Shown in pieces: positions 1 through 40,762 of a DNA stretch of 40,776 nt. Below the pieces are notes generated by a model. The model was not told where the DNA came from. It ran no database searches and was given only the letters and a program-made list of their open reading frames with translations. Source of the stretch: an uncultured Candidatus Saccharibacteria bacterium (lineage in GTDB: Bacteria; Patescibacteriota; Minisyncoccia; CAIUEV01); NCBI GenBank assembly GCA_964602125.1, contig CAZRPR010000001.1:21890-62665 (forward strand), in the 5' to 3' direction. The translations under genes were made by a program, and so were the position numbers. Numbering within the stretch: the first letter of the stretch is position 1; each line of letters starts with the position of its first letter.

Positions 1-55
1 CCTTGTCCCTTGTCCCTTGTCCCTTGTCCCTTGTCCCTTGTCCCTTGTCCCTTGT
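1..55. repeat. Heptanucleotide tandem array (CCCTTGT)n, cut by window edge
   Basis: Read directly: ccttgt followed by 7 perfect cccttgt units. The array ends 6 nt before the typA stop codon (62-64, minus strand). The same unit recurs at 19029-19097 and 38676-38710. Confidence 0.95.
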
Positions 56-61
56 TCCTCT

Positions 62-6400: not shown

Positions 6401-6484
6401 CTACTTACTCCCTTTTAAAAGAACATTATGGGTCAAAAGACCTGTTTGACTGTTCTACAGGAGAAAAAGAGGAGAGTCAAGAAG

Positions 6485-6526
6485 GGAAGTTGAAAGTTAA
6501 AAGTTAAAAGTTGAAAGTTAAAAGTT
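6485..6526. repeat. Heptanucleotide array (RAAAGTT)6
   Basis: ggaagtt gaaagtt aaaagtt aaaagtt gaaagtt aaaagtt, read directly. Confidence 0.9.
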
Positions 6527-6550
6527 TTCGGAAGATTTTCAATTTCTAAT

Positions 6551-6597
6551 TTTGCATTTTTAACTTTTAATTTTGAATTTTTAACTTTGCATTTTTT
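6551..6597. repeat. Heptad-periodic T-rich array (TTTNNAN), opposite polarity to 6485-6526
   Basis: tttgcat ttttaac ttttaat tttgaat ttttaac tttgcat tttttca. It contains AACTTTT units complementary to the upstream AAAAGTT array and runs into the stop codon (6597-6599) of the YabE-like gene. Confidence 0.8.
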
Positions 6598-7589
6598 CAC
6601 TCTTCTCCCGTATAACTAAACCCCTTATTCAACACTTCCTCCACCTTCACTCGCGTGGTGCCTTGCCCCAGCGGTGCCAACTTTGAGAAGGCCTCTTTGC
6701 TTAAATCGATCAATTTACCTGTTCCCGCCTGCGGTCCATAACCTTCAACGCGCACAAAGGCTTGTCTGCCGTTATCACGATTGGTTACTCGTAGCCAAGT
6801 CCCGGCCGGAAAATCTCTGGAACTGCAACTTGTTGGGTCCGTACCGTACCAACTGGCAATGCCTGAGTCTGACTTACCTACATTAATCTTCGTACCGAGA
6901 CTGATTTTTTCCGTTATCGCCTCCTTGACGGTTTTGGAGCTGATTTTAACCTTAGAAACGATTTCACCATTTTCATAACTGATCTTATACACCGTCTCCT
7001 TTTCTCCCTTCTCTCCCTTTTGACTTACTTGCTTAATTCCCCAATCAACTTTAGGGTCTTTGGCTGTAATAGTCTTAAAATCAATCGCTTCTTTTTCTGT
7101 CACTTCTTCATGTTTAATACGAGTAATGGTTATTTTTAATCCATCTCTAAGACTTTCGGTTTTACTCGGTTTTACTTCATCTAGGTGACTCAGATGAATT
7201 TCGTTTTCCAAAATCGCGTCCAACACCGTTGGCAGAAAAGATTGGTTTTTGATAGTTTTTCCGTCCACCGCAATTTCCACACTGGCCGGTCGATCAATCA
7301 CAATTTTCGTACCAGGAAAGATTGGGGTTTTCCGATCGGGATATATTCTGTCCACTTGATTAATCGCGATTTTCTTCTCAGCCAAAAATTCCTCGACCGT
7401 TATCTTATCACTCATTACATACCTTGAAAGTCCGTCCTCATCAATTTCTATTGGCTTGGGAAAATCAAAAACCAACTTTCTTTCTCGTGGAAAAAAAGAA
7501 TATTTTTGATTAAAAAGCCAACCGAAAAAAATCGCTTCACTAAGCAAAACCAAGCTGGCCAAAATTTTTGTAATTTTCATGATTTCCAA
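6597..7589 (-). CDS. YabE-like cell-wall protein: DUF348 + G5 + RlpA-like double-psi beta-barrel (3D) domain
   Basis: 330 aa with an N-terminal TM/signal. DUF348-like segment (ITVEEFL..INQVDRIYP..GTKIVIDR). G5-like segment (EKEAIDFKTITAKDP..QKGEKGEKETVYKISYENGE). C-terminal GIASWYG...RVTNRDNGRQAFVRVEGYGP..IDLSKEAF, typical of the RlpA/3D fold. Confidence 0.75.
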   Translation of the reverse strand: MEIMKITKILASLVLLSEAIFFGWLFNQKYSFFPRERKLVFDFPKPIEIDEDGLSRYVMSDKITVEEFLAEKKIAINQVDRIYPDRKTPIFPGTKIVIDRPASVEIAVDGKTIKNQSFLPTVLDAILENEIHLSHLDEVKPSKTESLRDGLKITITRIKHEEVTEKEAIDFKTITAKDPKVDWGIKQVSQKGEKGEKETVYKISYENGEIVSKVKISSKTVKEAITEKISLGTKINVGKSDSGIASWYGTDPTSCSSRDFPAGTWLRVTNRDNGRQAFVRVEGYGPQAGTGKLIDLSKEAFSKLAPLGQGTTRVKVEEVLNKGFSYTGEE

Positions 7590-11300: not shown

Positions 11301-13567
11301 ATGCCTTGATTTATTTGGATGGAAAATTAGATGGATCAGCTAGTATGTCAACTAATCTGGGTAATAGTCTCAACAATTCAAATAATCTTCGTTTAGGCAA
11401 TTATTATGCCGGTAATTATCTACCTATGAGTGGACTTCTCGATGAAATGAAAATCTACAACTACGCGCGGACGCAAAAGCAAATCGTGGAAGACATGAAC
11501 GGCGGTCATCCGGCGGGTGGCTCGCCGGTCGGTTCGCAAGTCGGCTATTGGAAGTTTGATGAAGGGCAGGGAACGACAGCCAACAATTCAGGTAATGGCG
11601 GATCAACGCTGAACGGGACAATTAATGGCGCGACATGGACGAACGATGGGAAATTTGGAAAGGCGCTTAGTTTTGACGGAAGTAATGATTATGCCAATAC
11701 CTCTTCCCGTATCATTGACAGCACAAATAGTTTTTCAGTTAGTGGCTGGGTAAAATTTAGTAGTCTGTCAAGTAATTACAGTGTCCCCCTCTGGAATGGA
11801 GTCGATAGTACTACGGGTGGATTTGGCCTAGGCTATAGAAAACCAAACTCTAGAGTTATCTATGCGGGCTGGGGTTCTTCTGCCGGAGAAGTGGCTGGAC
11901 CAATAAGTACGGATAACACATGGTACTATTTATCTTCAGTATATGACGGTAGTAAACATAAATTTTATGTTAACGGTGTCTTACAAGGTTCTGTGAATTT
12001 TTCCACTTCAAATTTTGCTAGCGGAACAACCACTTTTGGAAACTTATCTTCCGGTAATGGATATTGGTTTAATGGCCTTATCGACGAAGTAAAAGTCTAT
12101 AATTACGCACTCACCGATTCCGACATTCAACTCGACTACAACCAAGGAAAATCGATGATTCTGGGAAGCAAGGGGACGGAAAGTGATGGGAAGACACCGT
12201 CGAATTCCGCCAGTCGTGCCTACTGCCCTCCGGGAAACGTGGAAGGGAATTGTGCCCCGGGACTAAGCCCCGCCCCGGTAGGTGAATGGAAATTGGATGA
12301 CGGCACCGGCACCACTGTCACTGACACTTCCGGCAACGCCAACACCGGCACCCTCACCAACGGCCCAACATGGGCGCAGGGAAAAGCGGGAAAGGCGGTG
12401 AAATTTGATGGAACGGATGATTTGATCCAATTTTCAACATCAAATTTTCTTACGAACGCAGGTTCGATTTCAGCTTGGGTTAAAAATGATGTTTGGGGAG
12501 CCAGTAATACTGACACTGTCATAGACTTGTATGATAGCACTAATCCTGGTGTCAAAAGAGATGTTTTTACAATAAAATATTGGTCCAGCAACTCAAAACT
12601 AACTGCGATGATGCTTGATTCTAGCAGTAATTGGTATAGTGCTGGAGCGACTGTTACTTACACCCCTAATCTTTGGTATCATGTTGAAATTGTCAGAAGT
12701 GGAACGTCTCTTAAAATATATATTAATGGAGCCGAAGCCGGCTCAGCAACAGTTAGCTCCAATAATTTTTACAATTTTGATAGAATTCGAATAGGACAAT
12801 CAGCAACCAGCAGTGAAGCTTGGCAAGGCCTCATCGACGACGTAAAGATTTTTTCTTACGCCCGCACCCCTGCCCAAATTGCTTGGGATTACAACCAAGG
12901 AAAACCAGTAGGGTGGTGGAAGATGGATGAAGGGCAGGGCGCAACCGTTTACGATCATTCCGGCAACGCCAACAACGGAACGATGACCAACATGGATCCC
13001 GCCACCGATTGGGTGGCCGGCAAGAACAACAGCGCCTTGGATTTTGATGGGAGTAATGATTATGTGAGTGTGGCAGATAATAATCTTTGGAATTTTGGGA
13101 CAAATGATTTTTCCATAAATCTTTGGGCCAAGTGGACGAGCTTAGCTAATATTGAAAGTATATTGGGCCAGTCAACTAGTGGTGGAAATGTGACAAAGTG
13201 GAATTTAGTAAAAAGTATGAATACTAGTTTTGGATATGATAATTCTTTACTAACATTTCATGTTTATAATGGAGGTAATTATTTTGCTTCTTGGAATTGG
13301 ACGGCGAGCACAAACACTTGGTATAATGTGGCAATCGTAAGATCAGGAAACAATTGGAATTTGTATGTTAATGGTATTCAGACTGGCGGAACGCAAACGC
13401 AATCTGCCTCAGTTCCTAACATTGCTACAGACTTGAGAATAGGTAGCGACGGAGAAGCCTGGAATTTTTTAAATGGTCAAATCGACGACGTCCGCATCTA
13501 TAATTACGCGTTGTCAGCGGAACAGGTGAAACAGGTAATGAACGAAGGTGCGGTGAGGTTCAAATAG
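8303..13567 (+). CDS. Giant surface protein: N-terminal TM, DUF2341 domain, one ConA-like module and six LamG (Laminin_G_3) repeats
   Basis: 1754 aa. DUF2341 signature WWNDAWMYRKSITV..LTDFQV..DLRFTD..LSYWIED..VWVKIPS..YFYYGN. Six modules each open with VG.W..DEG.GTT..D.SGN.N.GT and close with IDE.(K/R)IYNYA......I..DYN. Confidence 0.9.
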   Translation: MKIKTLLLSIKYIAFHPIRSWRVFTPKTKRRIKKLAFVFLIVALSVPGYLWYEKKYGNIEEAEAGWWNDAWMYRKSITVSNSSGSALTDFQVKILDNKDLSADITAGKIQTDLDDLRFTDISGTVLSYWIEDATTTSVDVWVKIPSVPTTGATAYFYYGNTQATSEQNGNKVFEFFDDFSGDLSKWTNACSATITSGYLSIPNNSSCDAVPMYANNLNYSDTTGYIFELKGKFSSGGNGRLQLYQRRRNANGYMSRFWITGTSTTYYQEYTGSYGANNNVGSNNMSADTWYTLKVQVNGSNNTYYVNNTSVGSYAASASLSPFSDFTVGLGEYLTAVQYDDVRVRKYASTDPSAGTPATEEKGGGPVAYWSFDEGRDTTAYDASSNRVSGTLYSMSSTSDPNSGWQNEDKCISGKCLGFDGTNDDVEFGLNKIGPLIDGASSSTVSMWVKYSSLAGAANKYGNVIYASRQASANSNIWLNLRSDGGSEGKLLLGGRSKSTDSFQEVTSSTALNPNVWYHVVGILNYASNTATIYINGAQSVSSGVSFGSTTYVHSAPGSTYDSIGSNAGGIVFKGYIDEPKIYPYARTAAQIAKDYNAGLAGMGKSNEGTSASIGGKSNKWMTDGLVGHWKMDEASWNGTSGEVKDASGNANNGTGSGGVTTGAGKFGNGGNFDGSDDYVNAGNGSNLNITNAMTIGTWVKFNGLSSNSAIVSKFDLSAGSPYNGYALIIGGAASNRIGLNLNVNGAYSGTWGNTVLTTGVWYYLVATFTNGSVKLYVNGVDDGCNGTGTGCSPTGSISTNTLNLNIGENPNGGNKINGSIDETRIYNRALSPKEVADLYNYAPGPVGYWNMDDATGTTTKDLSGNGNNGTLGDSSYRPNWSQGKYGGGLSFDGTDDYVNVGDPSSGILDMGNNDFTLETWFNTNNTSNLHQYFMAKGHLDGYCDQAANAGYGFRISYGYLNFKLNPGAVSCGSVSGTTLISSLPTGWHHGAVVVNRSGNALIYLDGKLDGSASMSTNLGNSLNNSNNLRLGNYYAGNYLPMSGLLDEMKIYNYARTQKQIVEDMNGGHPAGGSPVGSQVGYWKFDEGQGTTANNSGNGGSTLNGTINGATWTNDGKFGKALSFDGSNDYANTSSRIIDSTNSFSVSGWVKFSSLSSNYSVPLWNGVDSTTGGFGLGYRKPNSRVIYAGWGSSAGEVAGPISTDNTWYYLSSVYDGSKHKFYVNGVLQGSVNFSTSNFASGTTTFGNLSSGNGYWFNGLIDEVKVYNYALTDSDIQLDYNQGKSMILGSKGTESDGKTPSNSASRAYCPPGNVEGNCAPGLSPAPVGEWKLDDGTGTTVTDTSGNANTGTLTNGPTWAQGKAGKAVKFDGTDDLIQFSTSNFLTNAGSISAWVKNDVWGASNTDTVIDLYDSTNPGVKRDVFTIKYWSSNSKLTAMMLDSSSNWYSAGATVTYTPNLWYHVEIVRSGTSLKIYINGAEAGSATVSSNNFYNFDRIRIGQSATSSEAWQGLIDDVKIFSYARTPAQIAWDYNQGKPVGWWKMDEGQGATVYDHSGNANNGTMTNMDPATDWVAGKNNSALDFDGSNDYVSVADNNLWNFGTNDFSINLWAKWTSLANIESILGQSTSGGNVTKWNLVKSMNTSFGYDNSLLTFHVYNGGNYFASWNWTASTNTWYNVAIVRSGNNWNLYVNGIQTGGTQTQSASVPNIATDLRIGSDGEAWNFLNGQIDDVRIYNYALSAEQVKQVMNEGAVRFK

Positions 13568-14255: not shown

Positions 14256-14299
14256 GACCATAATTCTCAATTTTCAATCCCTAATTTATAATTTTTGTC

Positions 14300-14725
14300 A
14301 TGTCTTACGAACAAAAGCATCCCGCCTTCAATCTTGAAATGAATCCTGAGTTGGATTTACTGAAAATCCGAGTCAGGGAAATCATCGATTTCACAGAAAA
14401 AAACATTGAGACCGATAGTAGCAACCAAGACCTTGCAAATCTTTTTGAGAGAGAGGAGGAGTGGAGAAACAACTTGATTGAGATAAAAAATCTGCTGGAA
14501 AACTCCACGGTCAAGCAAAACATGGTCGACAGTAGCGATTATTCTGATATCGTGGGCAATTTCTACGGTTTTGTCTTTCTCTATTTGCAGACCCTCGCCT
14601 CCGGCAAAAAGCTTGAAAACCGAGATGACTTATTAGAGAAAATCAAGACTAAAACAGGCAATTTCCTAATCTACCTTGAAGGATTAAAAGAAGTTGGAGA
14701 AAAAGAGGAACCTCTCGCCGCTTAA
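14300..14725 (+). CDS. Hypothetical acidic protein
   Basis: 141-aa ORF with no overlapping long ORF of better quality. No family recognised. Confidence 0.5.
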   Translation: MSYEQKHPAFNLEMNPELDLLKIRVREIIDFTEKNIETDSSNQDLANLFEREEEWRNNLIEIKNLLENSTVKQNMVDSSDYSDIVGNFYGFVFLYLQTLASGKKLENRDDLLEKIKTKTGNFLIYLEGLKEVGEKEEPLAA

Positions 14726-15348: not shown

Positions 15349-15413
15349 ATTTCAAGGTGCTTTAATCTGCCCGAGTTCTATAGGAAAACAAAGAAAAAGT
15401 CAAGCCTTCTACG

Positions 15414-15520
15414 GAAATTAGGAATTAAGGGAATTATAAATTTTAAATTATGGATTATGAATTTTTTCTATTAAGGAGAGGTTCTATAATCTACAATCTA
15501 TAATTTCCGTAATTTCTAAA
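15414..15520. repeat. Composite AT-rich heptad arrays (GAAATTA GGAATTA ... ATGGATT ATGAATT; ATCTACA ATCTATA ...)
   Basis: Read directly. It shares the 14-mer gaaattaggaatta with 36475-36488 and the 14-mer aaattatggattat (15445-15458) with 18957-18970. Confidence 0.75.
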
Positions 15521-15525
15521 CAACA

Positions 15526-18446: not shown

Positions 18447-18956
18447 ATGACGAAAATTTTCGATGATGTTTGGAAAATTATTGTTTACTCTTTAATTTCT
18501 CTTACCATCGTCATTAATTTGCTTCATTATTTAGAAAACAATGACTGGTGGAGAATTGAAGAAACCAAAGGCTTGGAAAAAATGCCCAATCGCTCTTTGG
18601 TTTTTTATTTTGTCAAAGATGAGAGCAATGACGATAGGGAAGAGCCCAGAGCCGAAATTTTTGTTAAAAATGTTTCTCAGGAGGAACTGAGCGGCTTTCG
18701 AGGTTTTTTTCAAAAAATATTTCCCGGCCAATACTTTTTTTTACGCATTAAATACCGAGACGAAACCGCCTACAGTCCGATTTTTTTCATGCAAGACAGA
18801 GAAATAAAACGTATTTATTTTAAATTCGATCAAAAAGAAATATCCCTTAAATTTACCGGTGCCAGTTCTAGAAAGTTAAGAACTGAACCGGAATTAAAAC
18901 TGACCCCAATCAACCAAATGATTAGCAAATTCGGTAAAAATATTTTTAGAAATTAG
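18447..18956 (+). CDS. Hypothetical protein with N-terminal TM helix
   Basis: 169-aa ORF with no recognised family. Its stop codon lies inside an AT-rich heptad array. Confidence 0.5.
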   Translation: MTKIFDDVWKIIVYSLISLTIVINLLHYLENNDWWRIEETKGLEKMPNRSLVFYFVKDESNDDREEPRAEIFVKNVSQEELSGFRGFFQKIFPGQYFFLRIKYRDETAYSPIFFMQDREIKRIYFKFDQKEISLKFTGASSRKLRTEPELKLTPINQMISKFGKNIFRN

Positions 18957-18993
18957 AAATTATGGATTATAAATTTTTCTACTAAATGAATCT

Positions 18994-19028
18994 CAACTTT
19001 GAACTTTTAACTTTTAACTTTTAACTTT
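18994..19028. repeat. Heptanucleotide array (NAACTTT)5
   Basis: caacttt gaacttt taacttt taacttt taacttt, read directly. Confidence 0.9.
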
Positions 19029-19097
19029 CCCCTTGTCCCTTGTTCCTTGTTCCTTGTCCCCTGTTCCTTGTTCCTTGTTCCTTGTTCCTTGTTCCTT
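19029..19097. repeat. Heptanucleotide array (YCCTTGT), about 9 units
   Basis: ccccttgt cccttgt tccttgt tccttgt cccctgt tccttgt x5. It ends 4 nt before the leuS stop codon (19102-19104). Confidence 0.9.
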
Positions 19098-19101
19098 TCC
19101 C

Positions 19102-22044
19102 CTACACTACCAGATTAACAATCTTTCCTGGTACATAAATCCATTTACGGACTATCTTACCGGCCAAATGTTTTTTAATCGAATCCAAAGCCAAAACTAT
19201 TTTTCGAACTTCCTCCTCACCCAGATTGGGGGGCAGAAGAACCACTTCTCTTTTTTTGCCATTAATCTGGATAGCCACTTCCTTAGTTTCCACTTTAAGC
19301 ATCTTCGGGTCAGCCACCGGCCAGTCTTCAAGAAAAATACTGTTTTTGCCTCCCAACCCCGCCCAGATTTCTTCCGCCACGTGCGGAGTAAAAGGCGCTA
19401 ACATTCTTAAAAATATTTCAAAGTCCTTACGACCGATTTTTTCCGTTTTGTTCTTCCATAAATTAACCAAAATCATCATCTGACTAATGGCCGTATTGAA
19501 AAACAAATTTTCAATATCCACCGTCACTTTAGCTAAAGTAAAGTGTAGCTTCTTTTTCGCCTCCATATAATTTTTATCTTTTTCGAGCAATTCTTCTTCC
19601 TTGTCGTTTCTAACCACTTTTTCTTGTAAGAACCAGACTTTTTCCAAAAAACGCCTTACTCCGGCAATTCCTTGTGTGTCCCACGGTTTCATATCTTCCA
19701 ACGGCCCCATAAACATTTCATAAAGCCGCAAGCTATCCGCTCCCCATTCCTTGACGATATCGTCCGGACCGATAACATTGCCCTTGCTCTTTGACATTTT
19801 ATTATGATCGGGCCCCAAAATGATACCTTGATTACGTAATTTTAAAAACGGTTCCGAAAAATCAATATGTCCGGCGTCTTGCAGCGCCTTGGTAAAAAAA
19901 CGAGAATAGAGCAGATGTAGCACCGCATGTTCCGCCCCGCCTACGTAAAGATCTACAGGCAGAAAGCGACGCAACGCCTCCTGGGTGGCAAATTCCTTGT
20001 CATTTCGAGGATCGGCGTAACGATAATAATACCAGCTGGAACAAACAAAAGTGTCCATCGTATCCACTTCTCTCTCTGCCTCCTCTCCGCAAAGCGGACA
20101 GCGGGTTTTTCGAAAAGAATCTAGTTTTTTCAAAGGCGATTCGCCTGTCGGTGTGAATTCAACTTTTGGAGGCAACTTGACGGGCAGGTCTTTCTCCGGC
20201 ACAGGCACTATTCCGCATTTGGGACAGTAAATTATGGGGATTGGTGCCCCCCAATATCTTTGTCTTGAAATCAGCCAGTCCCGTAAACGGTAATTGACTC
20301 GAGGCTCCCCAATCTGCTTTTGCCCCAACCAATCGATTATTTTTTCCTTCGCCCGCGAAACCCCCATCCCGTCAAGAAAGGCTGAATTAATCATCACCCC
20401 CTCTTTACCGGCGCAACAAATTCTTTCTCTTAGTTTAGTAATAGGCAAAGTCCAAGCCACAAAATCAGGCATAAAGATTTTATTTTTGAATATCTTGAGT
20501 AGCATTTTGTGCCGCGGATCAAAGCCTTGTCTTTTCGACAATTTCTTCATCACCCTTTCCAACCGGCCCCTGATTTCCTCTCTCGATTTCGAAGAATCAT
20601 CCTTGATAACTCTGTCTTTAAAAACAAAAACCAGATACTTTTCCCTAGCAACCTCAGCCCAAAAATCTTTCTTAAGATATTTTTTTAACGTTTTGGTGTA
20701 GGCATTAAAATCTTTCTCTCCCGAAATTTCAATAGTTAAACCGTAAGGCTTTTCCCCTTTGGAAAGAAAAAATTCTTCCGTCAGATATTTTTCGGCCAGT
20801 AATGCCTGCAATTCCTTCGGTTTATTCACAAAGGAAAGATCAACAAAAGAAACTATTTTTTCTTCAAGCGAAACCACTCTTTTCACTTCTAATCCGTGTT
20901 TTAAGGCAAATTCAAAATCTCTTTCATCGTGAGCAGGCACGCCCATAATCGCCCCCGAACCGTAATCTCCCATAATATAATCGGCCGAGTAAATGGGCAT
21001 CGGCTTTTCCGTCGCCGGATTAACCGCAATCAGGCCTTCAATTAGCACCCCGGTTTTATCTTTATTTAATTCCGTTCTTTGCATTTCATTTTTTTTCTCC
21101 GCACTCAGTTGATACGCTTTAATTCTTGATTTATTCAGAGCAAATTCTCCAATCTCTTTAATCGTCTGACCGTCCGGAGCCACCACCAAAAAAGTGGAAC
21201 CGAAAAGAGTGTCTGGTCGGGTAGTGAAAACTTTAACGGAGGCCACTTGGGGTAAGCCCCTTAGGTAGTTGGCTGTCTCGAAAGTTTTTCCTTGATTCTC
21301 CTTTAAATATTTTTTATCTTTACGGTTGACTTGTTTAATTTGAAAGAAGACTTCCGCTCCATCGCTACGGCCAATCCAATTCTTTTGAGTTTCTTTTATG
21401 CTTTTTGGCCAATCTAAATTTTCCAAATCATTCAGTAATTTTTCGGCGTAAGCGGTCGTCTTGAAAAACCATTGATCTAATTCTTTCTGCACCACTTCCG
21501 TTTCACAACGCTCACATTTACCGCCAACCACTTGCTCATTAGCAATGGTGGTCTGGCACTTAGGACACCAATTAACCTTAGCTTTCTTTTTGTACGCCAA
21601 ACCCCTTTTGTAAAGAAAAAGGAAAAACCATTGGGTCCATCGATAATAGTCTTCCTTAGAAGTGTCAATTTCTCTTTCCCAATCGTAGCTTAGTCCAAGC
21701 GATTTTATCTGTTCTCGATAGCGAGCAATATTTTTAGCCGTAGTCTTGGCCGGATGAATCCCACTTTTTAAAGCAAAGTTTTCTGCCGGTAATCCAAAAG
21801 CGTCCCAACCCATCGGATAGAGAACGTTAAAGCCTTGCATTCTTTTGAAACGACTCAGGATGTCCGTAGCTGTGTACGATTCAACGTGACCGACATGTAA
21901 ACCCTCACCGGAAGGGTAGGGGAACATTGAGAGACAGTAGTATTTTTTCTTTTTACTTTTAATTTCACTGCGGCTGAGAGCCGGATTTTTACTCCATTTT
22001 TTTTGCCATTTGGACTCGATCTTGCTAGGATTGTAAATATTCAT
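19102..22044 (-). CDS. leuS: Leucyl-tRNA synthetase with lineage-specific insertions
   Basis: 980 aa. HIGH-type motif PYPSGEGLHVGH, CP1 editing motifs TTRPDT and GVPAHDERDFEFA, KMSKS (NKMSKSKGN), and Zn-binding CPKC/CERC. Confidence 0.95.
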   Translation of the reverse strand: MNIYNPSKIESKWQKKWSKNPALSRSEIKSKKKKYYCLSMFPYPSGEGLHVGHVESYTATDILSRFKRMQGFNVLYPMGWDAFGLPAENFALKSGIHPAKTTAKNIARYREQIKSLGLSYDWEREIDTSKEDYYRWTQWFFLFLYKRGLAYKKKAKVNWCPKCQTTIANEQVVGGKCERCETEVVQKELDQWFFKTTAYAEKLLNDLENLDWPKSIKETQKNWIGRSDGAEVFFQIKQVNRKDKKYLKENQGKTFETANYLRGLPQVASVKVFTTRPDTLFGSTFLVVAPDGQTIKEIGEFALNKSRIKAYQLSAEKKNEMQRTELNKDKTGVLIEGLIAVNPATEKPMPIYSADYIMGDYGSGAIMGVPAHDERDFEFALKHGLEVKRVVSLEEKIVSFVDLSFVNKPKELQALLAEKYLTEEFFLSKGEKPYGLTIEISGEKDFNAYTKTLKKYLKKDFWAEVAREKYLVFVFKDRVIKDDSSKSREEIRGRLERVMKKLSKRQGFDPRHKMLLKIFKNKIFMPDFVAWTLPITKLRERICCAGKEGVMINSAFLDGMGVSRAKEKIIDWLGQKQIGEPRVNYRLRDWLISRQRYWGAPIPIIYCPKCGIVPVPEKDLPVKLPPKVEFTPTGESPLKKLDSFRKTRCPLCGEEAEREVDTMDTFVCSSWYYYRYADPRNDKEFATQEALRRFLPVDLYVGGAEHAVLHLLYSRFFTKALQDAGHIDFSEPFLKLRNQGIILGPDHNKMSKSKGNVIGPDDIVKEWGADSLRLYEMFMGPLEDMKPWDTQGIAGVRRFLEKVWFLQEKVVRNDKEEELLEKDKNYMEAKKKLHFTLAKVTVDIENLFFNTAISQMMILVNLWKNKTEKIGRKDFEIFLRMLAPFTPHVAEEIWAGLGGKNSIFLEDWPVADPKMLKVETKEVAIQINGKKREVVLLPPNLGEEEVRKIVLALDSIKKHLAGKIVRKWIYVPGKIVNLVV

Positions 22045-22113
22045 TGAGTTTTAAAAAGATTAGTTTCAATCAATATTTAGCACCAAGATTAATGTTTGTA
22101 AAATTTCCTCTTT

Positions 22114-22148
22114 CTACTTTGAACTTTGAACTTTTAACTTTTAACTTC
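22114..22148. repeat. Heptanucleotide array (NAACTTY)5 overlapping the 3' end of the second nrdD-like gene
   Basis: ctacttt gaacttt gaacttt taacttt taacttc. The last four codons (E V K S) and the TAA stop (22134-22136) of the minus-strand ORF are encoded by the array. Confidence 0.9.
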
Positions 22149-24131
22149 CCCCTGGAGTGCTCCTCGCTTCATAAACCCGCAGTCATTGCAGTAAGTAAAT
22201 TCAGGCGAAAAGGCGATTTGAGCCACCTCAGTCTGACGAAAGCTCTTCTTGACCAATTCAGCAATCCCCTTGGCGGGTGGTCTGGATTCGCCCAACCAAA
22301 TGTGAGTCAGCGCTCCGGCATCGATCAAGGGGTGGAAATAACCTTCCATTTTGATTCTTTCTAGCGGATCAAAGGGGGCCCCGATATTAATTTGAGTTGA
22401 GTTTGTATAATACACTTCGCCTTTTTCTAAGTTACCTTTTACCACACTTCTAGCAGCCTTTTCATACCAATTTAAATCTAATTTAGAGAATCGATAAGCT
22501 GTTGTCTCTGCCGGAGTTTGCTCTAAAACCAGTTTCAAGCCATATCTCTCCGAAAGTCTTTCGCAAATCAATTTCAGCTCCGCCGTCACTTTCAAGCCGA
22601 ATTTTAAAGCCCTCCTTGATTCATGTAATTCCTCACCCAAATGATACTGAACCATTTCGTTAAGCCCCACGATGCCAATCAAATTGGTCACTCGATGCAT
22701 TCTTAAGTAGGGATGGTCGTCATCCGGCTTCTTAATGGAAAGCAAACCCAAGGGACCATCAATGCCCTTGGCCAAGAGATGCTCAATAAAAATTCGCTTT
22801 TCTCGGTGAGCTTTCACCACCAAACTCATTAAGGCTCTGATTTTGGTAAAAAGCACATCATCATTGCCTCCCGCCTTATACGCCAGACGAGGCAAGTTGA
22901 TAGAAATATTTTGCAAAGCGGAATAGCGCATGCGCCAAGGTTTTTTGGCATCTTCAATATCACTTTTCTCCAGCTTGAAAGACAGTCGACAACACTCAGA
23001 AATTTTAGCTTCATTGCGACGATCAAAGACGAAATAGGTGTTACCTTTCTCGGAGGCTACCTGCGAAATAAACTCCAAAAATTCTTCATGTCCAGGAGTG
23101 TTAAAAAATTCTTCCGTAATATGAACTAGAGGTTTAGGGAAGAAAAAGGGCCGGCCGGAACCATCTCCCTTGAGATAAACTTCAAACAAAGCCCTAGCAA
23201 ACGCTTGCGACTCTGTAATATAATCTTTGTAAGTTTTCCCCGTATAAATTCCTCCCGGACCAATAGCGGGCACATCTTGAAAATGCTTCGGCACCTCCCA
23301 ATAAAGATTAATATCAGAAAAAATCGCCTGACCCCCTCGAGCCACCGCCTGCTGAGAAAATTCATAAATCAACACTTCCGCTAATTGTTTAATATCCCCC
23401 TCGCTTCGTCCCACCAGATAAGGAGCTAAGAAAAGATTGACTGCGTCCCAACCGATAGCTCCCGAGAAATGACATTGCAAGGCGGCGGAAAGTTTTATCA
23501 GATGAGCAATTAGCACTTCGGCATGTTTAGCCGGTTTGGCTTGGGAAAGGGAAGAAGTTAAATCTAAACCGTATTTCTTGATATATTCCAGGGATTGACC
23601 GGAACAGTAAGGCCGATCGATCATGCCCAAATCGTGAAGATGAATATCTCCCCTGGCGTGAGCCTCACTCACTTCCTCGGAAAAAACTCGGAGCAGAGCA
23701 TATTCTTTTTTAATTCCCTCCGCCAAGGTCAGATTGGTCGCCTCGGGACCGTGAGGCACATTGGCGTTATCTTTGTTGGTTTCGTTTTCAATTATTTGTT
23801 CCACGTCATAAATAGGAAAACCTAGTCGACTATATCGCTTATGAGCTTCTTCCAAACCTCTTTCCAGTAGTTTACCTAACACCAACTCTCGAACTAATCG
23901 AGAAGTAATATATTTTATCTTGCCTTCAAAAATTTGATCTTCCACTTCTCGGGTAATTTCCATGGCTAATCGGCGACTAATGCCAGACTCTTTAATCAGA
24001 CTTTCGGCAATTCTTTCCGCCTCCCATTTTTCCACTTCATCCCCGCTAGTTCTCACAAATAAAGCTTTATCCGTCACGTCGGTTTTTAAGTCCAGTTTCA
24101 GAGAAGACTGTTTTTGTTCCATTTCAGACAA
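22134..24131 (-). CDS. Second class III RNR (NrdD-like) paralogue, truncated in the Zn-ribbon with no glycyl-radical domain (possible pseudogene)
   Basis: 665 aa. ATP-cone-like N-terminus, DIHLHDLG and finger-loop ECCRLSF..ISINLPRLA. It ends YCNDCGFMKRGALQGEVKS, which is only the first CxxC of the ribbon. There is no RVxGY motif in any frame before leuS, 90 nt downstream. Confidence 0.8.
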   Translation of the reverse strand: MSEMEQKQSSLKLDLKTDVTDKALFVRTSGDEVEKWEAERIAESLIKESGISRRLAMEITREVEDQIFEGKIKYITSRLVRELVLGKLLERGLEEAHKRYSRLGFPIYDVEQIIENETNKDNANVPHGPEATNLTLAEGIKKEYALLRVFSEEVSEAHARGDIHLHDLGMIDRPYCSGQSLEYIKKYGLDLTSSLSQAKPAKHAEVLIAHLIKLSAALQCHFSGAIGWDAVNLFLAPYLVGRSEGDIKQLAEVLIYEFSQQAVARGGQAIFSDINLYWEVPKHFQDVPAIGPGGIYTGKTYKDYITESQAFARALFEVYLKGDGSGRPFFFPKPLVHITEEFFNTPGHEEFLEFISQVASEKGNTYFVFDRRNEAKISECCRLSFKLEKSDIEDAKKPWRMRYSALQNISINLPRLAYKAGGNDDVLFTKIRALMSLVVKAHREKRIFIEHLLAKGIDGPLGLLSIKKPDDDHPYLRMHRVTNLIGIVGLNEMVQYHLGEELHESRRALKFGLKVTAELKLICERLSERYGLKLVLEQTPAETTAYRFSKLDLNWYEKAARSVVKGNLEKGEVYYTNSTQINIGAPFDPLERIKMEGYFHPLIDAGALTHIWLGESRPPAKGIAELVKKSFRQTEVAQIAFSPEFTYCNDCGFMKRGALQGEVKS

Positions 24132-33179: not shown

Positions 33180-33221
33180 CCATAATTTATAATTCTCAAT
33201 CTATAATCTCCAATCTCTACA
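33180..33221. repeat. Heptad array (YYNYAAT)6
   Basis: ccataat ttataat tctcaat ctataat ctccaat ctctaca. The stop codon of the alkylation-repair gene (33217-33219) lies in the last unit. Confidence 0.8.
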
Positions 33222-33936
33222 TTTTTCCTCTCAAATACCTCTTCCTCTTCTCCTCCGAAAAACGTTCGATGGCGTAGCGGAGCATGGTGCGGGGCATTTG
33301 GCGGTAATATTTTTTGAGAAATTTTTCTTCCTCCCCTTCGCTAATTCGCTTGCCCACTTCTCGAAGCATCCAACCGACCGCTTTGTGAATTAGATCATGC
33401 TCATCTTTTAAAAGTGTTTTAGCAATGGCGAAAATGTCCTTGCTCTCTCCTTGCCGGATAAACTCAAAAGTGGCCAACACCGCAATGCGTCTCTCCCAAA
33501 GATTGTGCGACACTGCTAATTTATATAGCACTTTTCTTTCCAAAGCCTTTTTGCCACTCAAGTATTTACCGACAATATTCGGTGCGGAAAGATCAACCAA
33601 ATCCCAGTTATTAATTCGCTTGGCGTTTTTTAGATAAAATTTAAAAATTTCTTTTTGTCTTTTTTCATCGGCTTTCTCAAATTGAGCAATAAGCACGAAC
33701 AGGGAGCACAGTCGATACTCATGAATTTCACTTTGCAAAAGTGTTTCTAAATCTTGGAACGTCAAACTGAAGTACTTCTTCGCCACTTGGCGCTGGATGG
33801 GGACTTTAACCCCTAAAAAAATATCGCCTTCACCGTACTGACCTTTGCCAGTCTTAAAAAACCCTTGCAAAACTTGGGCTTGTTTCTTGTCAGCTAGTGT
33901 GCATAGCTCTTTTTTTAATTTTAAAATATTTTCCAT
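33217..33936 (-). CDS. DNA alkylation repair protein (AlkD/AlkC-like HEAT-repeat glycosylase family)
   Basis: 239 aa. FFKTGKGQYGEGD.FLGV..P, NNWDLVD, LWERRIA and HDLI.KAVGWMLRE are typical of the DNA_alkylation family. Confidence 0.8.
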   Translation of the reverse strand: MENILKLKKELCTLADKKQAQVLQGFFKTGKGQYGEGDIFLGVKVPIQRQVAKKYFSLTFQDLETLLQSEIHEYRLCSLFVLIAQFEKADEKRQKEIFKFYLKNAKRINNWDLVDLSAPNIVGKYLSGKKALERKVLYKLAVSHNLWERRIAVLATFEFIRQGESKDIFAIAKTLLKDEHDLIHKAVGWMLREVGKRISEGEEEKFLKKYYRQMPRTMLRYAIERFSEEKRKRYLRGKM

Positions 33937-36474: not shown

Positions 36475-36561
36475 GAAATTAGGAATTATAAATTATAAAT
36501 TATAGACTTGCCTGACGGTTTACCTCCCGTTAGGGATGGTAGCCAGGTTATAGATTATGGA
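36475..36561. repeat. Composite: AT-rich heptads (GAAATTA GGAATTA TAAATTA TAAATTA) flanking a GC-rich imperfect hairpin
   Basis: Heptads read directly. The centre 36511-36547, cctgacggtttacctcccgttagggatggtagccagg, folds as CCTG..TACC-TCCC-gtta-GGGA-GGTA..CAGG. This is the same layout as the palindrome-in-array at 38676-38796. Confidence 0.6.
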
Positions 36562-38675: not shown

Positions 38676-38796
38676 CCCCTTTTCCTTGTCCCTTGTACCT
38701 TGTTCCTCCAATAATTTATAACCTGCCTACCGGCAGGCAGGCTTTCCCCTTGTTCCTCCATAATTTATAATCTCTAATTTATAATTTCTAATCTCC
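38676..38796. repeat. Composite heptad arrays (NCCTTGT then TAATTTA/TAATCTC types) interrupted by the 20-nt palindrome
   Basis: tccttgt cccttgt accttgt tcctcca ataattt ataa | palindrome | ctttcc ccttgt tcctcca taattta taatctc taattta taatttc taatctc. Confidence 0.85.
38722..38741. repeat. 20-nt palindrome copy
   Basis: cctgcctaccggcaggcagg. It is flanked by a 23/24-nt direct duplication ccttgttcctcca(a)taatttataa (38698-38721 and 38748-38770). Confidence 0.95.
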
Positions 38797-38803
38797 GTAT
38801 CCC

Positions 38804-40762
38804 ATGTTTCAAGTTTTTTCCGATTTCAAGCCGGCCGGCGATCAGCCTCAAGCCATAGCCAGCTTGACCAAAGGAATCAAAAAAAATTTAGATTTTCAAA
38901 CATTACTCGGTGTTACCGGATCGGGTAAGACTTTTACAGTGGCCAAATTAATTGAAGAAGTACAAAAACCAACACTGGTCATTGCCCACAATAAAACTTT
39001 AGCCGCTCAGCTAACTCAAGAATTTCGCACTTTTTTTCCCAAAAACGCCGTTGAATATTTTGTTTCCTATTATGACTACTACCAACCGGAGGCGTATATG
39101 CCCGGAACCGACACTTACATTGAAAAAGAGGCTCAAATCAATGAAGAGATAGACCGACTAAGACACTCCGCCACTTCCTCCTTACTCTCTCGAAGAGACG
39201 TAATCGTCGTCGCCTCTGTCTCCTGCATTTACGGTTTAGGTTCTCCGGAATTTTATGAAAATATTTCTTTAAGATTTGAAAAGGGAGATACTATTAACCG
39301 AGAAGAGGTTATCAAAAAATTAATCGACAATCATTTCGATCGTTCTGATTTACTCAGTCGAGGAAAATTTCGAGTTCGGGGAGAAAATTTTGAGATCGTT
39401 CCCACGGGCAGGGAAGTGGTCATTCGCATCAAAGCTAAAAACGGTATTATTACAGACATTTCCGAATACGATCTTTTTTCCCGTGAAGAGTTAGGTTCTC
39501 TAGATAAAGCACTCATCTATCCAGCTAAACATTTTGTCGTACCGGAACCAGTAGTAACCGAGGCGTTGAAAGAAATAGAGCAAGAAATGAAGGAACAAGT
39601 TAAGTTTTTTAAAAGCCATAAAAAACTGCTGGAAGCGGAAAGAATTCGACGAAGAACCCTTCAAGATTTAGAGATGATAAAAGAAATTGGCTATTGTAAC
39701 GGCATTGAAAATTATTCTCGCTATCTATCCGGCCGCCAAAAAGGTGAAGCCCCTTACACCTTAATTGATTACTTTCCTAAAGATTTTTTGATGGTTATTG
39801 ACGAATCACACGTCACTGTACCGCAAATTGGTGGTATGTATGAAGGTGATCGGTCACGCAAAAAAACTTTAATCGAAAATGGTTTTCGTCTGCCCAGCGC
39901 TTTGGACAATCGCCCCCTGCATTTTACTGAGTTTGAGGAAAAAATTAATCAGTTGGTTTTTACTTCCGCCACCCCCGGCAAATACGAAAAGCAAAAAACT
40001 CAAAAAATAGTTGAACAAATTATTCGACCGACCGGATTGGTTGATCCAGAAATAACAGTCAAGAAGGCGGAGGGGCAAATTAAAGATGTAGTCGAAGAAA
40101 TTGAATCAAACATCCTCAAAAAAGAACGTGTTTTGGTTACCACTCTCACCAAAAAAATGGCGGAGGATCTTTCCGCTTTTCTGCGAGAGAAAAAAATCAA
40201 GTCCAGTTACATTCATTCCGACGTTGATACTTTAGAAAGAATCAATATTTTAAATAAACTTCGCAAGGGGGAATTTGATGTTTTAATCGGCGTAAATTTA
40301 CTTCGAGAAGGTCTCGACTTACCGGAAGTTTCTCTGGTGGCCATTCTCGACGCTGATAAAGAAGGATTTTTACGCAATGAAACTTCCTTGATCCAAACCA
40401 TTGGTCGAGCGGCTCGTAATGTCTCCGGTCGAGTCATTCTTTACGCCGACCGAATCACCGGTTCGATGGAGCGCGCCATCCACGAAACTTCACGCCGCCG
40501 AAAGAAGCAAATCGCCTACAACCTAAAAAACAATATCACTCCGCAAACCATTCAAAAACAAATTAAATCCATTACTGACGGCGGTAGTATTTTAAGTAAG
40601 AATAGGGACTTTACTCGCTTGGCCAGCCTTGAAAACATTGAAAGCTACATCAAGCAACGCGAGACGGAAATGAAGGAAGCGGCTCGTAATTTGGAATTCG
40701 AAAAGGCGGCCTTCATCCGCGACGAAATCGGTGAATTGCACAAGTTAAGACACAAAGATTGA
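38804..40762 (+). CDS. uvrB: Excinuclease ABC subunit B
   Basis: 652 aa. GDQP.AI, GVTGSGKT, the DESH box (IDESHVT), helicase motifs V/VI (GRAARN) and the C-terminal UVR domain (EFEKAAFIRDEI). Confidence 0.95.
   Translation: MFQVFSDFKPAGDQPQAIASLTKGIKKNLDFQTLLGVTGSGKTFTVAKLIEEVQKPTLVIAHNKTLAAQLTQEFRTFFPKNAVEYFVSYYDYYQPEAYMPGTDTYIEKEAQINEEIDRLRHSATSSLLSRRDVIVVASVSCIYGLGSPEFYENISLRFEKGDTINREEVIKKLIDNHFDRSDLLSRGKFRVRGENFEIVPTGREVVIRIKAKNGIITDISEYDLFSREELGSLDKALIYPAKHFVVPEPVVTEALKEIEQEMKEQVKFFKSHKKLLEAERIRRRTLQDLEMIKEIGYCNGIENYSRYLSGRQKGEAPYTLIDYFPKDFLMVIDESHVTVPQIGGMYEGDRSRKKTLIENGFRLPSALDNRPLHFTEFEEKINQLVFTSATPGKYEKQKTQKIVEQIIRPTGLVDPEITVKKAEGQIKDVVEEIESNILKKERVLVTTLTKKMAEDLSAFLREKKIKSSYIHSDVDTLERINILNKLRKGEFDVLIGVNLLREGLDLPEVSLVAILDADKEGFLRNETSLIQTIGRAARNVSGRVILYADRITGSMERAIHETSRRRKKQIAYNLKNNITPQTIQKQIKSITDGGSILSKNRDFTRLASLENIESYIKQRETEMKEAARNLEFEKAAFIRDEIGELHKLRHKD

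Follow-up and report, generated by a model that had tools for sequence, protein, structure and literature searches.

Heterocyst-forming cyanobacteria, whose genomes run to several megabases, reportedly carry short tandemly repeated repetitive (STRR) sequences with the heptanucleotide units CCCCAGT, TTGGTCA and CAACAGT, which Mazel and colleagues are said to have described in 1990. We describe a comparable set of repeats in the far smaller genome, 0.91 Mb, of an uncultured Candidatus Saccharibacteria bacterium, starting from positions 18945–19097 of a 40,776-nt stretch of its DNA (“the window,” G000:C1:21890-62665, where G000 is the assembly of this genome). The 153 bases of this focal locus are non-coding repeat DNA filling the convergent spacer between a 169-aa open reading frame (ORF, 18447–18956) and leuS. 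They form a chimeric, unpaired composite of three heptamer arrays, one of about 150 array loci in the genome. On balance, we believe it probable that these arrays are tolerated selfish repeats resembling the intervening sequences (IVSs) of 23S rRNA, copied between loci and then reshaped by slippage in 7-base steps, with the stop codons inside them a passive by-product.

Repeats of this kind are already known, as heptameric long simple sequence repeats (SSRs), as STRR, as convergent pairs near stop codons in Xanthomonas and Nostoc, and as the heptamers of IVSs. As far as their work is summarised in two later papers (PMC4679880, PMC4692102), Mrazek, Guo and Shah (2007) found an excess of heptanucleotides among prokaryotic long SSRs, and the present arrays share what is given there: a period of 7 as the commonest long-repeat unit, a patchy distribution across phyla, an intergenic position and slippage as the proposed generator. 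Three tandem heptanucleotides are also attributed to Calothrix PCC 7601, in the citation given by Rehm et al. (PMC4692102). The sequence-only reading of the window had called an STRR-like system unexpected in a genome of CPR (Candidate Phyla Radiation) type; to judge from these summaries, prokaryotic heptamer over-representation had already been published and the word does not fit. A literature search found no description of such arrays in Patescibacteria.

The GGGAATC repeats of Xanthomonas and the GGGGAYT repeats of Nostoc/Anabaena (Rehm et al. 2015, PMC4692102) are, like ours, strict 7-nt tandems that lie near or overlap stop codons, are under-represented between divergent genes, and vary in length and sequence between relatives; the Xanthomonas repeats are likewise of unknown function. 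The units here differ in being AT-rich and unable to form G-quadruplexes, and several unrelated unit families coexist, joined into composites, in a host genome of about 1 Mb. Rehm et al. draw no link to S23p/PF05635 genes. The TAACTGA repeats of Beggiatoaceae (MacGregor 2015, PMC4679880) have a single unit, are mostly direct and sit just upstream of starts, whereas we find many units, inverted pairs and a 3'-end bias. Finally, repetitive extragenic palindromes and their mosaic elements (REP/BIME), REP doublets forming hairpins (REPINs) and MITEs (miniature inverted-repeat transposable elements) are also short hairpin-forming intergenic repeats copied within a genome and enriched at 3' ends or between convergent genes, and copies of MITEs and REPINs at many loci share non-repetitive internal sequence, as do the copies here. 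Their arms, however, are unique sequence and not tandem arrays, and REPINs have a RAYT transposase as partner.

Also close to the elements here are the IVSs of Coxiella, Leptospira, Salmonella and Xanthomonas (Warrier et al. 2016, PMC4990558), which share with them a hairpin, terminal inverted repeats and an optional PF05635 gene in the loop. The Coxiella IVS has a 28-bp terminal stem and an S23p ORF and is excised by RNase III with a cut at the first repeat; the repeats, tandem GACAGAT copies immediately upstream of the S23p ATG, number two or three depending on the strain. In one strain the ORF has an internal deletion, and the paper terms the IVS a selfish element (PMC4990558). Tandem heptamers directly upstream of an ATG, and copies without part of the ORF, are found here too. 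PF05635 has also been reported from rRNA insertions of CPR bacteria, where it was termed functionally uncharacterised (PMC11270868). In contrast to IVSs, which occupy rRNA helices 25 or 45, the elements in the window lie between protein-coding genes, most copies lack the gene, the arms are far longer arrays, and the focal locus has neither partner arm nor gene.

The nine window loci named by the sequence-only reading are indeed arrays of period 7, with a self-identity of 0.46–1.0 at lag 7 against 0.19–0.49 at lags 5, 6, 8 and 9, and Tandem Repeats Finder (TRF) agrees. Over the whole genome, to which the counts below refer, TRF finds 247 arrays at period 7 and about 70 each at periods 6 and 8, while strict self-matching gives 71 tracts at period 7 (7.8 per 100 kb), 0–5 at each of the other periods between 3 and 15, and none after local shuffling. 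As had been supposed, this is an STRR-like, genome-wide system: tandem 7-nt units at many dispersed non-coding loci, of function as unsettled as that of the cyanobacterial repeats, in a host assigned to a different phylum. Counting as intergenic the roughly 10% of the genome outside our gene calls, which are crude longest-ORF calls, 171 of 224 non-trivial arrays (76%) are intergenic, against about 90% of the Xanthomonas and Nostoc/Anabaena repeats. Arrays make up 0.75% of the genome and 5.7% of its intergenic DNA. The dominant units are AAATTAT, AAAAGTT, AAATTAG and AGATTAT, and we distinguish the unit families T (AT-rich, AAATTAT type), K (AAAAGTT/AACTTTT) and G (RACAAGG/YCCTTGT). None of the published units occurs in this genome: GGGAATC and GGGGATT are absent, and CCCCAGT, TTGGTCA and CAACAGT, the reported STRR units, have no two-unit tandem on either strand.

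The assembly (910 kb, 63 contigs, 39% G+C) is 87% complete, and the focal sequence is genuine, not created by assembly: its array begins identically in three independent Logan assemblies, each of which breaks off inside it, and the organism is present in runs SRR12261223-5. Twelve of 244 contig or gap edges fall in arrays, including both sides of the gap bounding the window and contig ends of C8, C10, C16, C41 and C42. Because the scaffold gaps at both window ends, like these contig ends, sit at or inside arrays, the assembled array lengths are lower bounds.

Reading all 83 array-bearing spacers reveals that the arrays are mostly inverted pairs: a purine-rich arm of (AAATTAT/AGATTAT/AAATTAG)n or (AAAAGTT)n, a short loop, and a complementary pyrimidine-rich arm of (ATAATTT/ATAATCT/CTAATTT)n or (AACTTTT)n. 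Where two arrays of opposite orientation are adjacent, the purine-rich one comes first 35 times and second once; at least 35 such pairs here compare with 70–75 “convergent” inverted pairs per Xanthomonas genome (PMC4692102). The paired loci fold to long, weak A-U hairpins of −12.8 to −18.6 kcal/mol (z −1.1 to −2.9), the value of −12.8 kcal/mol belonging to 6478–6600. If transcribed, paired copies would form 25–40-bp A-U duplexes, the type cut by RNase III in IVSs, and the genome encodes RNase III (rnc gene). This inverted-pair architecture had gone unmentioned in the sequence-only reading, as had the PF05635 gene in the loop and the array-encoded protein tails described below.

Distant loci share more than their period. 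A non-periodic core, CTCCTTA[AG]TAGAAAAA, is found at six loci and a loop, ATCTTCYGAAAAC, at five; seven K-family hairpins align through a common loop, and in three to five of these the unit variants follow one another in the same sequence, AAAGTTAAAAATGCAAAATTAAAAATTAAAAGTT, for over 30 nt. Since distant loci have these non-periodic loops and unit-variant orders in common, the elements have been copied between loci. Such copying had been proposed from exact junction 14-mers shared by distant loci; these are present at the coordinates given for them, with 9 and 5 occurrences in the genome, but are weak evidence because each is just two neighbouring units, and it is the loops and variant orders that bear the proposal out. 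A recurring order of families had also been claimed. By eye, CAAGG-type units lie outside AAAGTT-type units at about six loci, but a strict count gives 2 versus 2, so that a fixed order is rejected and there is at most a tendency.

The focal locus (modules in Table 1) is a chimera of such arrays. On the leuS sense strand its order is (RACAAGG)n (AAAAGTT)n, core, (ATAATYY)2, that is, a purine-rich G+K arm joined to a T-family core and pyrimidine-rich arm, and the same join occurs at C20:12045. The core motif TAGTAGAAAAAT occurs seven times in the genome, the inspected copies lying in array-bearing spacers (e.g., C20:12045 and C4:11597). On one side, the TAG stop of ORF 18447–18956 (18954–18956) spans the first and second array units, which thus supply this stop and the two codons ahead of it; on the other, the third module ends 4 nt short of the leuS stop codon (19102–19104, minus strand). 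There is neither a PF05635 ORF nor a partner arm. Neither strand folds (z +0.5 and +0.7), and a scan of the spacer for a terminator-like site (G+C-rich stem and U tract) found none, so the focal locus offers no evidence for the 3'-end function suggested for it earlier. Most likely, this copy is unstructured and inert.

The link to IVSs comes from the two PF05635 (“23S rRNA intervening-sequence protein”) genes of this genome. One, at C22:10957-11307, occupies exactly the interval from (AAATTAT/AGATTAT)n to (ATAATCT/CTAATTT)n, arrays of the most frequent unit family here; the ATG belongs to the final unit of one arm, the TAA to the opening units of the other, and the 115-aa protein matches PDB 2RLD. 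The second (G000:C58 1-383) lies at a contig end and has an array of 9-mers, (CTTTATTAA)n, beside it. Among 41 related genomes (0.5–1.2 Mb; G001 and following), 25 have PF05635 genes, and about 20 of the 30 loci fetched are framed by inverted 7-mer (some 8- or 9-mer) arrays with genome-specific units. The PF05635 genes of G002 and G007 are framed by 9-mer arms (CATAAAGTT / CTTTATGAA), and the cassettes of G020 and G021 have 8-mer arms; the period of the arms is thus mostly, not always, 7. A profile built from these proteins finds heptamer-framed PF05635 ORFs in loci labelled Cytophagaceae, Thermodesulfovibrionales and Bifidobacteriaceae, the Cytophagaceae-labelled locus having the arms (AAAGTTG)6 and (CAACTTT)n.

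We propose that the basic unit is a hairpin of a purine-rich array, a short non-periodic loop and a complementary pyrimidine-rich array, as in 23S rRNA IVSs, the loop optionally holding a PF05635/S23p gene. Whole elements would be copied into new spacers, probably as gene-less derivatives of the cassette; replication slippage, 7 bases at a time, would then make their arms longer or shorter and cause them to diverge, and recombination between arrays of different loci would produce half-elements and chimeras such as the focal locus. Copies would persist mainly at gene 3' ends, where they may be least harmful and close to neutral.

The enrichment at 3' ends foreseen by the sequence-only reading holds. 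An array is present in 21% of convergent, about 10% of tandem and 8.5% of divergent spacers, the divergent ones being the longest (16% of convergent and 7–8% of divergent spacers in PMC4692102), and where a gene boundary lies within 40 nt of an array, the nearest one is a 3' end in 78 cases and a 5' end in 36. A stop codon lies within an array in 31 of 738 complete ORFs (about 4%), a start codon in 5. That arrays supply stop codons is correct for ORF 18447–18956 (TAG) and NrdD (TAA, in an AAAGTTA unit), whereas the stops of leuS and typA, also named in this connection, are only abutted. Seven is indivisible by 3 and TAA or TAG occurs in the AT-rich units, so any frame entering an array is closed within 21 bases, and a gene whose end is overwritten by an array thereby gains a short tail and a new stop; at least 14 proteins have array-encoded C-terminal tails (e.g., EIIDYRL*, EIINFKL*, FRNYRN* and PVKS*). 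NrdD itself is conserved to CGF(I/M)KRGAL, beyond which six related genomes each have a short tail of their own. The idea that the mRNA always carries the purine-rich strand was rejected, as unpaired arrays at 3' ends are purine-rich in 24 cases and pyrimidine-rich in 26; an orientation bias is present only among paired arrays.

Arrays are also read through in frame in ORFs of 549–2414 aa, at C14:11725-15609 (arrays 12298–12327 and 15447–15476), C14:16264-17910, C20:3-7244, C33:4953-5519 and C34:3-560, and yield recurrent peptides in different proteins, NFQFSI(F/S)N(F/S)QTISND and LR(E/D)KIQEQG.R.KEQEETGS. The repeat elements thus seem to be tolerated as protein insertions.

Among relatives, unit families are genome-specific. 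Searching for three units with up to 2 mismatches, we find AAATTAT 83 times here and not once in four relatives, one of them of the same genus; ATGAAAC (G005 only) and CACATAT (one G014 cassette only) are absent here; AAAAGTT occurs 63 times here, 52 times in G005, 7 times in G002 and once in G001. Downstream of leuS, ordinary terminators are present in the same-genus genomes G001 and G002, and in G005 there is another heptamer hairpin, whose units are ATGACGA. Tracts in random samples from relatives also have 7 as their most frequent period, with many different units and at a density below that of this genome. Beyond the relatives, (AAAGTTN)4 is found in at least 120 stretches in genomes of many phyla and in 79 viral contigs, but three permuted units of the same composition occur in 69, 77 and 51 viral contigs. 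The AAAGTT unit is therefore rejected as the mark of an element common to these phyla; the control indicates that heptamer arrays are frequent whatever their AT-rich word, and no spread of one element follows from it. A genome-specific 34-mer of a K-family arm has no exact match in metagenome contigs.

Several observations weigh against the reading of the arrays as neutral, IVS-like repeats. The copying has no known mechanism: no transposase or nuclease is associated with the elements, and in the spacers inspected neither target-site duplications nor a transposase was noticed, although no systematic search for these was made. No PF05635-bearing copy of the focal K and G families exists in the 87%-complete assembly, and for these families the IVS link is one of analogy. 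In random 20-kb samples of relatives, PF05635-positive genomes have 8 tracts in 539 kb (1.5 per 100 kb) and negative genomes none in 504 kb, but the tracts come from just 4 of 20 positive genomes; the genome-level association is weak and, related genomes not being independent, suggestive only. The nrdD array can be aligned with a degenerate counterpart that occupies this site in G001 and supplies the NrdD stop there too, so not all arrays are young, and its retention could reflect constraint; the C-terminal regions of the two genomes are 91% identical in NrdD and 68% in LeuS. Lastly, classical terminator-like motifs are rarer in spacers with arrays (3/62 versus 29/202, p = 0.046, a weak result from a crude perfect-stem finder), which hints at functional replacement. 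Such motifs are scarce overall, in 32 of 264 spacers of 50–450 nt with a gene 3' end by the strict finder.

These last points lead to the second-ranked explanation, that the arrays are functional 3'-end RNA elements, either bidirectional terminators and 3' stabilisers or RNase III sites separating transcripts, which have taken the place of classical terminators. It would account for the excess in convergent over divergent spacers and at 3' over 5' ends, for the 35:1 polarity, which equals the A-tract/stem/U-tract layout of a bidirectional terminator, for the fewer terminator-like motifs beside arrays, and for leuS, which has a classical terminator in G001 and G002 and arrays alone here; RNase III is encoded, and the nrdD array is kept in G001. 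Nevertheless, we think it unlikely. The focal locus is unstructured and without a terminator-like site, the stems elsewhere are A-U rich and weak, and unpaired arrays show no orientation bias at 3' ends. Nor are arrays confined to 3' ends, some being upstream of start codons, some between divergent genes and some in frame inside long ORFs; the unit families are genome-specific and mostly unconserved at orthologous sites, and the polarity follows equally well from descent from one hairpin ancestor; the terminator finder is crude.

Less probable again, and in our view improbable, is that the arrays bind a protein in 7-base steps, such as the pentameric PF05635 protein or a single-strand binder, and serve in DNA/RNA organisation or in translational control, the start-side arrays tuning translation as proposed for the Beggiatoaceae TAACTGA repeats. 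PF05635 genes do sit inside arrays, sampled tracts were confined to PF05635-positive genomes, and the relatives with AAAAGTT arrays all have PF05635 (10/10, versus 14 among the remaining 30); no more than 40 nt from a start codon there are 31 pyrimidine-rich arrays, and CspB binds heptamer repeats with one protein per unit (PMC4679880). A cold-shock protein as the reader of heptamers was rejected, no cold-shock-domain gene being found in the 87%-complete assembly. Moreover, unit sequence varies freely within and between genomes, which a sequence-specific binder could not tolerate, the related genomes are non-independent and the tracts come from few of the positive ones, and the Coxiella S23p protein is probably not produced in vivo (PMC4990558).

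The last-ranked explanation, independent origin of each array in place by local slippage from chance two-unit seeds in a favoured 7-base register (Mrazek et al. 2007), with no copying and no element, is the least probable of all, for although arbitrary-unit heptamer arrays are common, as the viral contigs show, relatives have a modest period-7 excess with many units and no published unit occurs here, slippage as the sole process is largely refuted by the non-periodic loops and cores shared by five to seven distant loci and the unit-variant order identical over more than 30 nt, inverted arms of 35:1 polarity are not a product of it alone, and arms frame PF05635 genes in many genomes. IVS-like selfish repeats thus rank first among the four explanations.

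Of the remaining window loci (Table 1), all of which lie between protein-coding or tRNA genes, several bear on gene ends. The gene names assigned earlier agree with Pfam (TypA/BipA, G5-DUF348-DPBB [YabE-like], LeuS, NrdD, DNA_alkylation). A known RNA family as the identity of the arrays was rejected, as an Rfam scan of the window gives tRNAs and no other RNA family. The array at 1–59 resumes beyond the 100-N scaffold gap at the window edge (G000:C1:21735-21789), and a spurious 114-aa ORF passes through this CCTTGTC array. The edge of the hairpin at 6487–6596, one of the seven loop-sharing copies, abuts the stop of the YabE-like gene (6597–7589, minus). G000 and G001 can be aligned across the nrdD-leuS spacer (22045–22185), with the promoter-like stretch that it contains. 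In ATAATCT and ATAATTT arrays the −10 consensus TATAAT returns with every 7-nt unit, so arrays near starts could be portable −10 boxes or drive leaderless transcripts; at 14264–14292 there is a promoter-like match, TTCTCA-17-TATAAT, whose end precedes the ATG at 14300 by 8 nt.

Some arrays contain GC-rich palindromes. The composite at 38676–38796 encloses a 20-nt palindrome, CCTGCCTACCGGCAGGCAGG (38722–38741), whose core and variants occur at about 12 genome sites; a palindrome is also nested in the array at 36510–36548, and further palindromes are GGGGCGGACC.GTGTGTCCGCCC, CTGGGCGTAGCC and CCCCTCTTGAGAGGGG. Heptamer arrays also directly flank tRNA genes, at C2:34886-35148 (both sides), C11:19764-19956, C24:429-712, C27:1836-2017 and C9:16419-16513. 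At C2:41463-42164, about 2.5 tandem copies of a unit of about 190 nt (AAAAACCTCACCA.TAGTGAGAT..TTTTATTGGCTCGGGGACATGGA...) lie beside a tRNA-like 3' end and a T-family array, and look like duplicated truncated copies of a tRNA gene.

Table 1. Heptamer arrays and array modules of the window, in window coordinates.
Feature	Position	Strand	Composition and context
CCTTGTC x8.4	1..59	+	2 nt from typA/bipA stop (gene 62-1840, minus)
Complete K-family hairpin	6487..6596		(AAAGTTN)n, loop TTTTCGGAAGATTTTC, (AATTTTN/AACTTTN)n arm with GCAT markers
Pyrimidine-rich AT array	14261..14295	+	TAATTCT CAATTTT CAATCCC TAATTTA TAATTTT; directly upstream of ATG at 14300
Complete T-family hairpin	15414..15520		Conserved core GAATTTTTTCTATTAAGGAGAGGTTCT; best-folding window locus, −18.6 kcal/mol, z −2.9 (15410-15525)
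Focal module 1	18948..18975	+	Four AT-rich T-family units, AGAAATT AGAAATT ATGGATT ATAAATT; purine-rich on +
Focal non-periodic 19-nt core	18976..18994	-	Minus strand reads GAGATTCATTTAGTAGAAA; plus strand TTTCTACTAAATGAATCTC
Focal module 2	18995..19029	+	Five AACTTTN units, K family; pyrimidine-rich on +; AAAAGTT on leuS sense strand
Focal module 3	19030..19097	+	About 9.6 YCCTTGT units, G family; RACAAGG on leuS sense strand
(AAAGTTN) x4.6	22116..22147	- (nrdD sense strand)	Gives last codons and TAA stop of NrdD (22134-24131)
ATAATYT/CAATCTN units	33180..33221	+	Abut and overlap stop of DNA alkylation-repair gene (33217-33936, minus)
(GAAATTA GGAATTA TAAATTA ...) array	36475..36561	+	Broken by GC-rich palindromic insert, then resumes as TTATAGATTATGG
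Pyrimidine-rich composite	38676..38796	+	CCTTGTN units, then ATAATTT/CTAATTT; ends 7 nt before ATG at 38804

In practical terms, the arrays break short-read assemblies, create spurious ORFs and add tails to real proteins, which matters for the annotation of CPR genomes. Among the long simple repeats of prokaryotes, heptanucleotide arrays are the most frequent, and since the description of STRR neither an origin nor a function for them has gained acceptance. A compact, heavily loaded genome here shows a gene-bearing cassette, complete gene-less hairpins and broken chimeras side by side, so that the link between IVSs, PF05635 and heptamers is directly testable. More tentatively, and as a possibility that we rate on the unlikely side, heptamer hairpins and PF05635 genes may be one family of mobile elements, in which the cassettes would be autonomous and the hundreds of gene-less hairpins and half-arrays, STRR-like repeats of other phyla among them, their derivatives, the 7-base period reflecting how the pentameric four-helix-bundle protein, or the copying mechanism that it served, measures DNA or RNA. 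If true, this would explain a repeat class unexplained since 1990 and would give PF05635 a function.

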